Below are positions 961 through 6,253 of a stretch of DNA of 64,000 nt, one piece after another. Location of the stretch: NCBI GenBank assembly GCA_036376245.1, contig DASVAS010000063.1, positions 27,798-91,797 of the forward strand, read 5' to 3'. The notes under the pieces are model-generated. The model saw only the letters and a list, made by a program, of their open reading frames with translations, was not told where the DNA came from and made no database searches. The position numbers were made by a program, and so were the translations under genes. This stretch comes from Thermoanaerobaculia bacterium (GTDB lineage: Bacteria > Acidobacteriota > Thermoanaerobaculia > Multivoradales > UBA5704). Every line of letters begins with the position of its first letter. The stretch's first letter is position 1.

Positions 961-3900
961 TCAGCCGGCCGCCGGGGGGGACGACGACGCGCCCCGGCGC
1001 AGGGAGAGCATCGCCACCATGGCCAGGGGAGCCAGCAGGGCGGCGCTCAGCAGGCCGCTTGCCACCGTGAGCGCCAGACCGCGCCAGAACGTGCCCGCCT
1101 CCGCCAGAAGCAGAATCGGCAACACGCCGACCAGAGAGCACAGGAGGGTGGTCCACATAGGCCGCAGCCGGCTCCGCACCGCCACCAGCGCCAAGTGGCC
1201 AGTTGGCAGCGAGGGGTGAACGCGGTGCAACCGGCGGTACTGGTCAGCCAGCAGAATGCTGTCGTTCACAGCCGTGCCGATGACCAGGATGGAGCCGATA
1301 AAAGCGCCTTCGGCGAAAGCCTCGCCGCCCCGGGAGAAAGCCAGGGCCACACCGAGCCAGGCCATGGGAAGACTGATCATGGAGAGCCCGGCCAGCTTCC
1401 AGGATTCAAGAACGGCGGCGATGACCAGGAAGACCAGGAAGACCGTCCCGCACAGGACGGGAAAGATCTCCCGCCGCACGCCTTCGCTCAGGAAGGCCTC
1501 TCCCGCGGCCTCGAGCCTGAGGCCGGGGGGCAGGGGGAAGGCTTTCAGCTCCCGCGCGAGGATCTTCTCTCCAAGCTCGAAGGGGCCAAGATAGGAGATA
1601 TCGATAGAGCGCTTGTACTGGTGATTGAATCGTTCGATCACCGGGGCCTCACGCTCGGCGGCGATCTCGGCGAGCTCCGACAGCCGGAAGGACTCATCGG
1701 ATTGCCCCGCCCGCAGGGGGCGGGACACCAGAGCGTCGAGATCCAGGTCCGCCGCCAGCACGGGCGCGATACGGACAGGCAGCCGTGAGTTGCCCTCGAA
1801 GCTGGCAAGGAATGCCGGAGCCGAGCCGGCGAGGTCCGCGCGCAGCAGCCGGGTGAGCCCCGAAGCATGGATTCCGGTGCGCGCCACGGCTTCGTCCCCC
1901 CAATGCAGGCGCAGCACTTCACGGCCGGGGAGCCGTCCCCTCCGGCCCGCGTCGATATCGACCTGGGCGAAGCCGGGGTGCTTCCGAAGCCGCTGGGCGA
2001 AGCTCGATGAAATCTTCCGGAGCTCGTCGTAGTTGGGGCCGAAGGCCTCCACCCTGAGACTCGCCACGTCGCCCAGACCGCTGTAGAAGCTCATGGGCAG
2101 CAACCCCGAGACGACCACCTCGACACCCGAGATGTGGAGGGCTTCGCGGATCAGGGCGTCCCGCACCGCCAGCCGCTCCCGCTCCTGGCTTTCATGGAAC
2201 GTCACCCGGAGAGTGGCGGCGTCGTCCCTCGCCGTCACGATCGTCTGGCGCACAGCGGGCTCCTTCAGCGCACGCGACTCGAAACCACGCATCAGAGCGT
2301 CGGTCCGCTCGATCCCGCTGCCCGCCGGCAGCTTGAGGGATAGGGTCACCTCGTCCCGCTCGTCGAACCGCCAGGACCGTCCCAGCTCCACGTTGCGGAC
2401 GAAGGCGCGGGTCGCGCCTCCCAGCATCGGATCCAGGGTCCGCCGCAGATTCAGCACCGCTTCGCTCCCCAGGGTCCTGTTGTAGAGAGCCCGCCAGGCA
2501 TGGGAGCCAGGCTCGATCCGCTCCGGCAGGAAGACGACCGGGACGCCGATGCACAGCAGCAGGACCGCCAGGATGGTCCGGGGGAAACGGACCGCGACCC
2601 GATGTGGAAAGAGGAAGAGACGAAGGCAGGTCCGGCGGAGTCCGGGAGAGTTTCGGCGCCTGTGAGCCGTCTCGGGAGCGAGGGTGTGGACCAGCGCGGG
2701 GATCAGCAGCGCGGCGCTGACCAGGGAACAGAGGAACGTGAGCGCCACGAGGATCGCGAACGGTTGGAAGACCGGCCGCAGCTCGCGGCTCAGGTAGACG
2801 ACCGGAACCAGCGCGGCCACCGTGGCGGCGGTCCCTCCCAACTGGGGAATCCAGACCGCGCCGAGGGCGCGGCGGGCGGCCTCCCGGAGCCCGGCTCCCC
2901 GCGCCCGCTCCGCCTGGATCCTTTCCAGGAGGACCACGGCATTGTCCAGGAGCAACCCGTCCAGGAGCACCAGTCCGGACAGGGTCAGGATGTTCAACGT
3001 CAGCCCCAGGGGTCCGAGCAGCGCCAACGCCACCGCCAGCGCCACCGCCAGGCTGGTCAGCACGATGAGAGCGGCCCGGAAGCCGTGCAGCATGACCCGC
3101 AACACGACGCCGACCGCGGCCAGGCCGAGGAGCGCCTGCAGCAGGAGATCGCGGAGCTGTTCGCGCAGGTGCTCGCTCCTGTCCTCCGCGGTCAGGATCC
3201 TGACCCGCGGAGGCAGCTCGCTTCTCAGCGCGGCCAGGCGTTCCTCGACCGCCCTGGCTACGGACAGCAGGTGAGTCCCCGGAGCGCGGTCGAGCACGAG
3301 GCTCACGACCGGCATCCCGTCGATGCGGCTGAGGCTCCGGGCGTCGCCGGGACCGAGCTCGACCTGTGCCACATCCCCAAGCCTGACGACCCGGCCGGTC
3401 GCGGCGTCGCTGGCGAGGGGCAGCCTCCCCGACAGGACCTCCTCCCAGCCGGCGGTCTTCAAGAGCAGGCTCTGGCCCCCCGGGTGCGACATCCAGCCGA
3501 AAGACTGGTCGAAGGAGGCCTCCCGCAGCTTTTCCTGGATGTGCTCGGGAAGCAGGCGATAGGCCTGAAGCTTCTCCCGGTCGAAGCGGATCAACAACTC
3601 TCTTTCCGCTCCCCCCTCCACGGCGACCGAGGAAATCCCGGCCAGGCTCCGCAGCTGCGGCGCGAGCCGGCTGTCCGCGAGGCGCCGGAGCTCCACGGGC
3701 TCGACGTCGCCGACCAGCTTCAGGGTCATGAATCCCTGCTCATCCCGCAAGGCCGCGGGGACCTCCCGCGAGATCCGGGGCACCACGCGCTCCGGCAGGG
3801 AGCTTCGCAGCGCGGCCAGACGATCGGACAGCTCAGCCGAATACAAGGCGATGTCGCGGTCCTCCTCCACTCCGACCCTCAGGACCGCGAACCCTTCGCC

Positions 3901-4146
3901 GGCATGACTCTCGACCTCGACAGTGCCGGGGATGGAAGCGGCGACGCGCTCGATCGGCGCGGCCACCCACCTTTCGACCGCGCGGGGGGAGGCGCCCGGC
4001 CAGCTGGCGGTGACGGCGACCTGGGGGAGCTCGACCGAGGGCACCCATTCCAGAGGCGCCCGCGCTCCCGCCCAGATTCCGACCGCCAGCAGACCGCAGG
4101 CGTAGAGGCAGACCGCGCGCGGCCGTTCCAGCAACCAGGCGATCAT
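961..4146 (-). CDS. RND-family efflux transporter permease (AcrB/HAE-like)
   Basis: 1061-aa ORF. The N-terminus (MIAWLLERPRAVCLYACGLLAVGIW...) and the alternation of large loops with TM bundles are typical of RND permeases. It starts 9 nt after the stop of the propeller gene, and no adaptor gene lies directly upstream. Confidence 0.85.
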   Translation of the reverse strand: MIAWLLERPRAVCLYACGLLAVGIWAGARAPLEWVPSVELPQVAVTASWPGASPRAVERWVAAPIERVAASIPGTVEVESHAGEGFAVLRVGVEEDRDIALYSAELSDRLAALRSSLPERVVPRISREVPAALRDEQGFMTLKLVGDVEPVELRRLADSRLAPQLRSLAGISSVAVEGGAERELLIRFDREKLQAYRLLPEHIQEKLREASFDQSFGWMSHPGGQSLLLKTAGWEEVLSGRLPLASDAATGRVVRLGDVAQVELGPGDARSLSRIDGMPVVSLVLDRAPGTHLLSVARAVEERLAALRSELPPRVRILTAEDRSEHLREQLRDLLLQALLGLAAVGVVLRVMLHGFRAALIVLTSLAVALAVALALLGPLGLTLNILTLSGLVLLDGLLLDNAVVLLERIQAERARGAGLREAARRALGAVWIPQLGGTAATVAALVPVVYLSRELRPVFQPFAILVALTFLCSLVSAALLIPALVHTLAPETAHRRRNSPGLRRTCLRLFLFPHRVAVRFPRTILAVLLLCIGVPVVFLPERIEPGSHAWRALYNRTLGSEAVLNLRRTLDPMLGGATRAFVRNVELGRSWRFDERDEVTLSLKLPAGSGIERTDALMRGFESRALKEPAVRQTIVTARDDAATLRVTFHESQERERLAVRDALIREALHISGVEVVVSGLLPMSFYSGLGDVASLRVEAFGPNYDELRKISSSFAQRLRKHPGFAQVDIDAGRRGRLPGREVLRLHWGDEAVARTGIHASGLTRLLRADLAGSAPAFLASFEGNSRLPVRIAPVLAADLDLDALVSRPLRAGQSDESFRLSELAEIAAEREAPVIERFNHQYKRSIDISYLGPFELGEKILARELKAFPLPPGLRLEAAGEAFLSEGVRREIFPVLCGTVFLVFLVIAAVLESWKLAGLSMISLPMAWLGVALAFSRGGEAFAEGAFIGSILVIGTAVNDSILLADQYRRLHRVHPSLPTGHLALVAVRSRLRPMWTTLLCSLVGVLPILLLAEAGTFWRGLALTVASGLLSAALLAPLAMVAMLSLRRGASSSPPAAG

Positions 4147-4155
4147 CTCGGCCTC

Positions 4156-5337: not shown

Positions 5338-5976
5338 TTAAGCCGCGGTACGGGCTTCAAGCCATCGCTCGAGCCCCTCAGGTTCTATGCTGTCCGGCCT
5401 GAAAACCGACTTGATCCGGAAATCCCGATCCACCCAAAGATAGATCGGGGTCTCGCTGAAGCCTGTCTCCGCCTCCAGGGGAAAGAACCGCGCCAGCTCG
5501 CGGGAACGCACATAGGAAAACGGGAAGGTCATCAGCTTCGAGTTGCGCAGATTGAGGGTATAGGTCTGGTCCTCCCGAGTATCCGCTCCGACCAGACCGA
5601 GAAAAGCCACATGCTCCGAACCCAGACGCTCCTGCAGAACGCGGATGGTGGAGAGATGGCCCCGCAAACCCTGGCCACAGGTCGTCGGATTGAAGACCAC
5701 GACGATCCGATCGCCAGCCGGAGCCGCCGCTCCTTCGGCCTCCCGCAACCGGGACGCGAAAGGTACGGGAGCGCCTACGAGTTGCATCAGATCCCGTGAA
5801 AGCTGCAGCTTGTCCGCTACGGCCTTCTCGCGCACCACGCAAGCCGCCAGTTGACCGTGCACCAGCCGGTTCTGCCGGATCAGGAGCGCCAGCGAAGCGA
5901 AGCAGACCAGGATCAGGATGAGGCTCTGGTGGTTGATGAGAAGGGTGACCAGGCGATTGCGAGCAGGGGTATCCAT
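5338..5976 (-). CDS. Membrane-anchored thioredoxin-fold (TlpA/redoxin-like) protein with degenerate active site (CGQG)
   Basis: Track ORF 5338-6156 was trimmed to the ATG at 5976 (MDTPARN...), which is preceded by AGGAGG. The longer form would overlap the upstream peptide gene. There is a TM helix (LILILVCFASLALLI), then a redoxin-like pattern IVVVFNPTTCGQG...VAFLGLVG...PIYLWVDRDFRIK. Only one Cys sits where CxxC is expected. Confidence 0.6.
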   Translation of the reverse strand: MDTPARNRLVTLLINHQSLILILVCFASLALLIRQNRLVHGQLAACVVREKAVADKLQLSRDLMQLVGAPVPFASRLREAEGAAAPAGDRIVVVFNPTTCGQGLRGHLSTIRVLQERLGSEHVAFLGLVGADTREDQTYTLNLRNSKLMTFPFSYVRSRELARFFPLEAETGFSETPIYLWVDRDFRIKSVFRPDSIEPEGLERWLEARTAA

Positions 5977-6043
5977 GAAACAGGCCTCCTGGAAGAGGAT
6001 AAAAACCAGGGGGGCGGCGGCAGCGACGCCCCCCGTAGGTTGA

Positions 6044-6253
6044 TCAGCGGCAGCAGGTGTAGCTGCCGACGCCGATGCAGTAGGGCGCGCCGCAGGCGGA
6101 TCCGCAACAGACCTCCGCCCACTTGCCAGCGGCTTCGGCGTCGATCTCGGATTCAAAGGAGTAGGAAGCGTTGGCGACAGGCATCATCCCGGCACCGAGA
6201 GCCAGGGCGAACATGACGGCGGCCAGCAGAAGACGGACTTTCAGATTGCGCAT
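6044..6253 (-). CDS. Small secreted cysteine-rich peptide (69-aa precursor, predicted 40-aa mature, 6 Cys); bacteriocin/RiPP-like
   Basis: The Sec-type signal MRNLKVRLLLAAVMFALALGAGMMPVANA|SY has an AxA cleavage motif. The mature part is SYSFESEIDAEAAGKWAEVCCGSACGAPYCIGVGSYTCCR. An AAGGAG SD lies 7 nt upstream of the ATG. Confidence 0.75.
   Translation of the reverse strand: MRNLKVRLLLAAVMFALALGAGMMPVANASYSFESEIDAEAAGKWAEVCCGSACGAPYCIGVGSYTCCR

Follow-up and report, generated by a model that had tools for sequence, protein, structure and literature searches.

What does a bacterium make from a gene for a very small secreted protein with six cysteines, when that gene is followed by genes for a thioredoxin-fold protein, a beta-propeller and an efflux permease? 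The question was raised by a locus in a 64,000-nt stretch of DNA from a Thermoanaerobaculia bacterium (contig DASVAS010000063.1); the whole stretch is called the window here. A reading of the letters alone (the original prediction) had described four co-directional genes, which encode a 69-aa precursor, a membrane-anchored redoxin-like protein, a six-bladed propeller and a permease of the resistance-nodulation-division (RND) type. The positions of these genes, the 40-aa mature form of the peptide and the CGQG sequence of the redoxin-like protein were all found as described, on the minus strand, and the gaps between the four genes were recounted as 67, 12 and 9 nt.

The sequences, taken together, indicated a peptide system that is real, conserved and unannotated, with a plausible mechanism. 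We propose that the product of the locus is a small disulfide-knotted peptide, formed in the periplasm and then exported, and give this proposal an even chance. Its evidence is presented first, followed by the points that weigh against it and the other explanations.

A family of six-cysteine peptides with Sec-type signals

The peptide gene is preceded by the Shine-Dalgarno sequence GAAGGAG. Its product consists of a signal peptide (aa 1–29, positions 6167–6253), an acidic linker (aa 30–42) and a conserved core, GKWAEVCCGSACGAPYCIGVGSYTCCR (aa 43–69, positions 6047–6127). Cleavage at the signal-peptidase site A-N-A gives the 40-aa mature form SYSFESEIDAEAAGKWAEVCCGSACGAPYCIGVGSYTCCR.

A word-index search returned one homologue of 61% identity, from soil and root metagenomes, with its genes in the order of the window. 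Searches of this kind at the protein level found only two peptides and seven thioredoxin-like proteins, and thus understated the size of the family; further peptide homologues came from loci reached through the neighbouring genes. A profile built from two sequences was then run against 1.84 billion representative proteins. It recovered 50 clusters at E ≤ 1e-3, nearly all of 51–90 aa and of the same architecture. With the members derived from loci, the family came to about 57 sequences, 54 of which have exactly six cysteines in the core.

The family core reads G-x-W-x-x-V-C-C-G-x2-C-x(2-8)-[DE]-[YF]-C-x-G-x-G-x-Y-x-C-C-[KR], followed in some members by a short tail. The CC-C-C-CC cysteine framework, the W, the V and the G-x-G are conserved. 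In nearly all of the 57 members the N-terminus has the make-up of a Sec-type signal, with a basic n-region, then a hydrophobic stretch, then an AXA-like site. The reading of the first gene as a Sec-signal precursor with six cysteines was therefore borne out by the family as a whole. The linker is acidic or glycine-rich and is optional. In several members the core abuts the signal-peptidase site (...QANA followed directly by GVWDYVCC), which suggested that no dedicated leader protease is needed.

Among four close loci, dN/dS (nonsynonymous over synonymous substitution) of the peptide gene was 0.19–0.36. In the core, dN was 0.10–0.19 and synonymous sites were saturated. Because of this purifying selection, and because nearly all of the 50 family clusters share the same architecture, the small open reading frame (ORF) is taken to be real beyond chance, and the possibility of a chance ORF was rejected. 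By the pattern of substitution it is a true gene, conserved under purifying selection.

No Pfam family, Enterotoxin_ST included, matched six members and the isolated core at E ≤ 10. NCBIfam gave no meaningful match for 37 members, and no PDB chain matched the family at E ≤ 10. A literature search returned nothing on motif strings of the six-cysteine core or on this combination of genes. As judged by these searches, the family is undescribed in Pfam, NCBIfam and PDB, and lies outside every described peptide family.

The sequences also bear on how the core evolves. The peptide genes of two loci, L013 (positions 744–938) and L092 (12–212), lie next to thioredoxin-like genes whose products are 88% identical. 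Their leaders are nearly identical (dN 0.012, dS 0.40), whereas their cores are only 57% identical (proportion of synonymous differences 0.83, dN 0.30). This suggested that the segment encoding the core had been replaced or exchanged. In the comparison of the window with L095, on the other hand, the cores are 89% identical, and the thioredoxin-like proteins (25%) and propellers (27%) form the most divergent pair. In bacteriocins and venom peptides, too, a leader that is kept can precede a core that varies or is exchanged; with numbers this small, the analogy is only suggestive.

Conserved partners and their replacement

Thirteen distinct peptide loci were collected: the window, L001, L003, L007, L008, L009, L011/L014, L012, L013, L092, L095, L096 and L097. 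Their GC contents range from 31% to 70%, and they include an Acidobacteriota metagenome-assembled genome (MAG), a Rhodothermales MAG and a marine contig. In 13 of 13, where the contig reaches far enough, the peptide gene adjoins a member of the same thioredoxin-like family, of the same propeller subfamily, or of both. None of 77 loci with generic propellers of the DUF5128 family carries this peptide or this thioredoxin-like family. A genome scan with close homologues of the propeller found nothing, the patterns being too specific. A second one with a broader propeller alignment gave 79 loci, among which only L013 and L014 held members of the subfamily, and a metagenome scan with an alignment of the thioredoxin-like proteins added one new locus, L092.

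The remaining partners are less constant. In L013 and L092 the peptide, thioredoxin-like and propeller genes are followed by genes for a MacB-type permease, an adaptor and an ABC ATPase. In L012 a MacB-type permease gene alone lies next door, on the opposite strand. MacB-type genes thus stand in place of RND genes in three loci. RND and MacB pumps both take their substrates from the periplasm. The link to export drawn in the original prediction gained support from the conserved synteny and from this replacement of one pump type by the other in other lineages.

Oxidoreductases vary in a similar manner. A gene for a DsbA-like protein with a CPAC motif is located just before the peptide gene in L096. 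In L095 (positions 2351–3095 of a contig of 31% GC), the propeller gene is followed by one for a MauE/DoxX redox-associated membrane protein. After the latter, a 54-aa ORF was seen with a leader-like N-terminus and four cysteines (MKKENFPEARKLKNAELSIVKAGFGEDKCPFEATCPNKYPGCYQPGMGKCAFMP).

L041 (positions 1–4932, from the Rhodothermales MAG) holds an RND1-like gene, two genes for cysteine-rich Sec peptides, one for a DUF5128 lipoprotein, one for a membrane-anchored DsbA-like protein (Thioredoxin_4, E=7e-27) and an RND2-like gene. The two peptides are unrelated to the six-cysteine family (types CC..CC..C..CC). By its gene content, L041 is an analogous cluster in which the oxidoreductase has been replaced by a non-orthologue. 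Replacement of both the transporter and the oxidoreductase by analogues is our main argument that the genes act together on a periplasmic disulfide-bonded peptide, which would then be pumped out.

The second gene of the window encodes a protein with an N-terminal transmembrane helix, a long stalk helix and a thioredoxin domain with the motif FNPTTCGQG. A longer ORF starting at a TTG was dropped in favour of the ATG. The AlphaFold2 model had a mean predicted local distance difference test (pLDDT) of 79.7. Foldseek gave 299 PDB matches for this model at E ≤ 1e-3, with 4nmu, SdbA, ResA, TlpA, StoA and DsbE/F at the top (E about 5e-6). On the model, the fold is that of membrane-anchored extracytoplasmic thiol-disulfide oxidoreductases, as the designation redoxin-like had implied. 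Neither Pfam nor NCBIfam, the MauD model included, matched the protein, and one family member matched Pfam Redoxin weakly (E=4e-4). A PDB sequence search with the family profile gave only chance matches (response regulators and BlaR1), which were discarded.

The active site, C100-G-Q-G, follows strand 89–95 and lies at the start of helix 97–118. P177 is invariant in 10 of 10 aligned members and T176 is nearly so; both stand just before strand 178–182, at the predicted cis-proline loop. The first active-site cysteine is invariant in the family. The second position is cysteine in five of 13 full-length members (CGKC in three, CNRC and CQKC in one each) and otherwise G, S or H. The window protein has CGQG where the TlpA/ResA/StoA/CcmG type has CxxC. 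Since relatives carry a true CxxC, we interpreted CGQG as a degenerate form of it, in agreement with the original reading. Conservation of the nucleophilic cysteine alone favoured a role as monothiol isomerase or mixed-disulfide chaperone, which is more likely than that of a self-sufficient oxidase or reductase.

The third gene product matched DUF5128 (PF17170) with 46.3 bits against a cut-off of 22.9 (E=4e-12). Its AlphaFold2 model (pLDDT 80.9, predicted template-modelling score 0.81) has six blades. The best Foldseek match was BF0058 of Bacteroides fragilis (4raa, E=1e-12), an uncharacterised exported protein, followed by NHL domains. Pfam, AlphaFold2 and Foldseek thus agreed with the six-bladed, GxGPGEF-type propeller originally described. 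The motif is GQGPGEF in the window, and the subfamily has its own insert, WRP..P.FP....H..WWD. Orthologues of 25–77% identity always adjoin the peptide and thioredoxin-like genes. Distant orthologues begin with lipoprotein signals in place of the hydrophobic anchor of the window protein, and these signals put the propeller outside the cytoplasm. The original prediction described propellers of this family as neighbours of peptide-modification systems in Bacteroidota; the literature searched for this held no mention of DUF5128 or NVEALA.

Another type of peptide was seen beside DUF5128 genes. In L021 (2220–4003) and L034 (1–1122, a Longimicrobiaceae MAG), a gene for a four-cysteine Sec-signal peptide directly flanks genes for DUF5128-type lipoproteins, with no thioredoxin-like or pump gene nearby. 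Its pattern is ...LW..SE.GETC.G.C....CC.(I/V)VAPAPPP. Cysteine-rich secreted peptides seem to be recurrent partners of the DUF5128 propeller family.

The fourth gene encodes an RND permease (RND2), which the original prediction had called adaptor-less. No adaptor gene is found among its immediate neighbours, and to that extent the description holds. An adaptor gene and a second permease gene (RND1) lie farther upstream on the same strand, so that the genes for the regulator, the peptide, the thioredoxin-fold protein and the propeller sit between two permease genes. In L009, an orthologue of the adaptor gene (E=6e-117) directly precedes RND1 and RND2, in the order AraC–adaptor–RND1–RND2–peptide–peptide–thioredoxin–propeller. 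The notion of a pump without an adaptor was therefore dropped.

RND1 matched positions 3–1021 of the ACR_tran model, and its best solved relative was MdtB (9lyq_B, E=6e-110, full length). RND2 matched ACR_tran in two stretches with a total of 395.7 bits; it is conserved in the N-terminal half and divergent in the C-terminal one, and its best PDB relatives were multidrug pumps, over residues 4–540 only. Both permeases scored below all curated equivalog and subfamily cut-offs of NCBIfam. They belong to two distinct groups of orthologues, each of which accompanies the module. Orthologues of RND1 lie beside it in L001, L003, L008, L009 and L011/L014, and those of RND2 accompany it in L009, L011/L014, L007, L008, L093 and L041, so that one or both were found in eight loci. 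The order is RND1–peptide–thioredoxin–propeller–RND2 in L011/L014 and thioredoxin–propeller–RND2 in L093. RND2 is thus taken as the second of two permeases in one pump, and the system as a whole resembles pumps of the MdtABC type.

Features of the six-cysteine peptide locus in the window (positions are those of the window)
Feature	Position	Strand	Remarks
RND permease RND2	961..4146	minus	1061 aa; ACR_tran E=5e-118; HAE-1-like
DUF5128 propeller gene	4156..5325	minus	389 aa; PF17170
Membrane-anchored thioredoxin-fold gene	5338..5976	minus	ATG 5976, TAA 5338; 212 aa
GC-rich stem-loop and T-run	6000..6034	minus	directly 3' of the peptide stop codon
Six-cysteine peptide gene	6044..6253	minus	ATG 6253, TGA 6044-6046; 69 aa
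Conserved non-coding element	6285..6313	minus	between regulator and peptide gene
AraC/MarA-type regulator, short	6340..6810	minus	156 aa from ATG 6810; HTH_18 E=1e-16
RND permease RND1	6782..9901	minus	1039 aa; ACR_tran E=2e-200; MdtB-like
Membrane-fusion (periplasmic adaptor) protein	9914..11233	minus	439 aa; HlyD_D23, HlyD_3, Biotin_lipoyl_2

The short AraC-type regulator was found just upstream of the peptide gene, as predicted. The first 29 nt of its gene overlap the end of RND1, as they do in L003; orthologues hold the same position in L001, L003, L008 and L009. The genes for the regulator, the peptide, the thioredoxin-fold protein and the propeller have a GC content of 0.61–0.64 and a GC content at third codon positions (GC3) of 0.73–0.79. 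GC3 of the flanking genes is 0.92–0.94 for the adaptor and RND1 and 0.86 for RND2. In L009 the thioredoxin-like and propeller genes are the GC-poorest of the cluster, and in L014 they are GC-poorer than the flanking permease genes. The composition of this low-GC block (4156–6810) suggests a mobile cassette or a different codon selection.

The 67-nt spacer after the peptide gene contains a hairpin, GGGGGGCG...CGCCCCCC, followed by a T-run. RNAfold gave −28.5 kcal/mol for the spacer. A strong GC-rich hairpin directly after the peptide stop codon was present in all 10 loci that were folded, and one was also recognized by eye in the spacer of L095. The hairpin sequences are unrelated between loci, which indicated that it is the structure that is conserved. 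A simple terminator scan did not list the post-peptide hairpin. We interpreted it, from its sequence and position, as probably a partial terminator or an mRNA-stabilising hairpin. Hairpins after the stop codon are common for precursor genes that are over-expressed, and the present one suggests that the peptide is made in excess over the other gene products of the set.

In the element between the regulator and peptide genes, a GC-rich palindrome, CTCTCACGCCGGCGAGAG, precedes TTGACAACTTAACC; the box TTGACAAC..TAACC is also part of it. In an alignment of four loci, the coding regions of which are saturated at synonymous sites, the palindrome was kept by paired changes from CGCCGGCG to GCGTCGACGC. 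The element could serve as an operator/promoter or as the regulator gene's terminator. A consensus scan found no sigma-70 promoter.

A proposed route and the alternatives

The proposed mechanism is as follows. The 69-aa precursor would cross the inner membrane through Sec and be cleaved by signal peptidase I after A-N-A. The six cysteines (CC-C-C-CC) would then pair into three disulfides, helped by the membrane-tethered thioredoxin-fold protein. The latter would more likely serve as a disulfide isomerase or mixed-disulfide chaperone than as a stand-alone oxidase. Oxidation itself might come from the general Dsb system, or from a DsbA-like or MauE/DoxX partner such as those seen in some relatives. 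The membrane-tethered propeller would bind or hand over the folded peptide, or shield the producer. The upstream adaptor and the two RND permeases would form a tripartite pump, by which the periplasmic peptide is expelled across the outer membrane. The gene set would be controlled by the AraC-type regulator. The periplasmic location of the thioredoxin domain, the connectivity of the disulfides, the parts played by isomerase, propeller and pump, and the activity of the peptide are what we infer here from the observed genes, folds, conservation, synteny and transporter replacement.

Outside the cell, antagonism (as a bacteriocin or toxin-like mini-protein) would be the most likely role, and signalling a less likely one. 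The gene directly upstream of the adaptor gene (11259–12050, minus strand) encodes a precursor related to the bacteriocin fulvocin C (NF033852, 112.5 bits against a cut-off of 35), with a Sec signal and a C-terminal cysteine-rich domain. This counts in favour of the proposed mechanism, since a second Sec-dependent cysteine-rich product adjoins the same pump. The fulvocin C-related precursor is not conserved in the other loci. A literature search on fulvocin gave passing mentions only.

Several observations weigh against this mechanism. By its sequence, the peptide core is near neutral, unlike a typical cationic antimicrobial peptide. The window thioredoxin-fold protein lacks the resolving cysteine and has no DsbA-like gene nearby, and the counts of K and R around the transmembrane helix (1–4 on the N-side, 2–4 on the C-side, in 11 members) are ambiguous as to the side on which the thioredoxin domain lies. 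Three loci on short contigs show no transporter. No gene for an outer-membrane channel of the OEP/TolC type was seen among the annotated genes of the window, the ORFs of the 64 kb having been scanned in part; such channel genes are often encoded elsewhere in a genome. Sequencing runs with the locus are of soil DNA only, in which its share is low, and no RNA run contains it. No RND pump is known to export folded peptides of 3–4 kDa.

A further point concerns the propeller. In L037 (4532–18644) and L060 (2988–20492), four to six tandem genes for DUF5128-like lipoproteins occur inside operons of adaptor, RND1-like and RND2-like genes. They are placed between the adaptor and the two permeases in L037, and between the permeases in L060. 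Neither locus has a cysteine-rich peptide gene or a thioredoxin-like gene. The link between propeller and pump may therefore be older than the peptide and independent of it, with the propeller primarily an accessory of the pump.

The same two loci favour an alternative in which the pump and propeller are primary. They would constitute an envelope-stress, detoxification or resistance pump with a substrate-capturing lipoprotein, and the peptide would be a resident periplasmic accessory (a regulator, plug, decoy or cofactor). Regulators of the MarA/SoxS/Rob type, to which the one here belongs, usually drive efflux pumps, and its start overlaps the end of RND1. The near-neutral charge of the peptide would also fit. 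On the other hand, the trio of peptide, thioredoxin-like and propeller genes persists with a MacB-type pump, and in L095 with no pump seen. A housekeeping accessory would not usually have a core that, as here, is exchanged or hypervariable among close relatives, and the hairpin suggests an excess of the peptide over the other products. We regard this explanation as unlikely, though deserving of some weight.

Folding and export of the peptide was also considered in a more far-reaching form. Here the peptides would make up an undescribed class of disulfide-knotted mini-proteins of 27–32 aa with the CC-C-C-CC framework, folded by a dedicated monothiol isomerase, attended by a DUF5128 chaperone, processing or immunity factor, secreted by RND or MacB pumps, and with cores exchanged behind a kept leader, as in animal venom peptides. 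In that event, an RND pump would for the first time be seen to export a ribosomal peptide, and the large DUF5128 family would receive its first function. All of these parts together are put forward tentatively, as a possibility whose chances fall well short of even.

The six cysteines, with their two vicinal pairs, might instead make the peptide a periplasmic thiol chelator (for a soft metal or a metalloid) or an electrophile scavenger, kept reduced by a TlpA-like reductase and removed in its loaded form by the pump. TlpA and ResA, which are reductases, are among the structural relatives of the thioredoxin-fold protein. Metals are exported by RND pumps such as those of the CusA/CzcA type, and the PDB relatives of RND1 include ZneA. 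The permease scores, however, favoured the multidrug type over the CusA/CzcA models (610 against 370 bits for RND1, 284 against 211 bits for RND2), as did MdtB as best solved relative of RND1. A reductase that is to be recycled needs the second cysteine, which most members of the thioredoxin-like family do not have. MacB-type pumps replace RND pumps in three loci, and the peptides of L096 and L041 come with DsbA-like oxidases. The core is not enriched in histidine or methionine, and no metal-sensing regulator is found nearby. These scores, the MacB substitution and the accompanying oxidases led us to reject a heavy-metal RND system, and chelation or scavenging as a whole appears improbable.

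Least credible of all, and hardly to be expected, is a thioether-crosslinked peptide that is made on ribosomes and modified after translation (RiPP), an option named in the original prediction: a radical SAM/SPASM enzyme about 6 kb upstream on the same strand does resemble maturases of cysteine-rich peptides (TIGR04463, CefB and PapB, below cut-offs), but it has its own candidate substrate immediately downstream, it has no relative in any other peptide-bearing locus, no thioether-forming enzyme is conserved with the module, and the peptide is headed by a Sec signal in place of a cytoplasmic recognition leader, some members lacking any linker between the signal-peptidase site and the core.

Other genes of the window were noted in passing. 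The radical SAM/SPASM gene (12515–14068, minus strand) matched TIGR04463, CefB and PapB at E about 1e-30 to 1e-32. The 68-aa ORF downstream of it (12047–12253, minus strand) resembles a RiPP precursor, with a double-glycine type leader (...LLSRVLGG) and a core, LVDDLVPPCTEFTCNVYAPPPPPPPGS, with two cysteines. From these features, the two genes probably form a separate ranthipeptide-like cluster. A set of genes at 14149–18094 (plus strand), transcribed divergently from the radical SAM gene, encodes an ABC ATPase and two ABC-2/DUF3526 membrane proteins, which could serve that RiPP for export or immunity. A further RiPP locus (48889–51945, minus strand) encodes a kinase and a LanC-like protein, of the class III/IV lanthipeptide synthetase type. 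Two other minus-strand regions are unrelated to the peptide module. One (44404–47976) encodes a protein of 1191 aa, in which two Ser/Thr kinase domains are combined with a TolB-like propeller; the other (56242–62849) encodes a wax-ester/triacylglycerol synthase, an acyl-CoA synthetase and a fatty acyl-AMP ligase.

Comparison with known systems

If folding and export of the peptide are as proposed, the locus represents a widespread, unannotated family of small, very stable-looking disulfide-rich peptides, encoded together with a folding catalyst of their own. Peptide drug development looks for scaffolds of this sort, which do not fold easily in vitro. A concrete context would also be gained for the divergent thioredoxin-like family and for the DUF5128 propellers, of which Bacteroidota, Acidobacteriota and Gemmatimonadota have many. 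A route through Sec, periplasmic folding and a tripartite pump is documented for few peptides, such as STII of E. coli, and we know of no example that uses an RND pump. An annotation as multidrug efflux may mask a dedicated secretion function.

In sublancin (BdbA/BdbB), pediocin (PedC) and the bacteroidetocins, the disulfides of a ribosomal antimicrobial peptide are set by a dedicated thioredoxin-fold protein encoded in the same operon. They use double-glycine leaders and ABC/C39 exporters, whereas the present system would use Sec and a tripartite efflux pump. None of these bacteriocin loci is known to have a propeller partner.

The cysteine-dense small subunit of methylamine dehydrogenase is matured by a thioredoxin-fold protein, MauD, and a MauE-type membrane protein. 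The MauE/DoxX gene right after the propeller gene of L095, the only locus in which one was seen, recalls this arrangement. On the other hand, no dehydrogenase or cofactor genes are present here, and the thioredoxin-fold protein does not match the MauD model.

The pump is comparable to MdtABC and MuxABC, in which, as in L009, one adaptor gene is followed by genes for two different RND permeases. It differs from them in the window, where the permease genes are split by those for the regulator, peptide, thioredoxin-fold protein and propeller, where the C-terminal half of RND2 is divergent, and where the scores lie below the equivalog cut-offs. The propeller belongs to the same Pfam family as the DUF5128/BF0058-type propellers of Bacteroidota, which include its closest structure (4raa). 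Its subfamily is set apart from other DUF5128 proteins by its own insert and by its strict linkage to the six-cysteine peptide and the thioredoxin-like protein.

The CC-C-C-CC arrangement is also that of conotoxin framework III, where a conserved signal region precedes a variable mature core. The cysteine spacing pattern is the same and the size is similar; this is a resemblance of pattern only, with no homology detected and a bacterial origin here.

The heat-stable enterotoxins of E. coli, STII (STb) and STa, offer a close parallel to the proposed route. They too are made as Sec-dependent, cysteine-rich pre(pro)peptides of about 70 aa, receive their disulfides in the periplasm from a thioredoxin-fold enzyme and leave through a tripartite pump (PMC5985334). 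For STII, which depends on Sec and DsbA, the pump is MacAB-TolC (PMC5985334). The likeness extends to the MacB-type pump in three loci of the present family. The present peptides differ in having no sequence similarity to the enterotoxins and no match to a Pfam toxin family at E ≤ 10. The oxidoreductase here is dedicated and encoded in cis, a propeller is added, the pump of the window is of the two-permease RND type, and the hosts are those of soil and sea. As a whole, the system is best likened to the ST enterotoxin/DsbA/MacAB-TolC route and to the bacteriocin loci that carry their own thiol-disulfide oxidoreductase.

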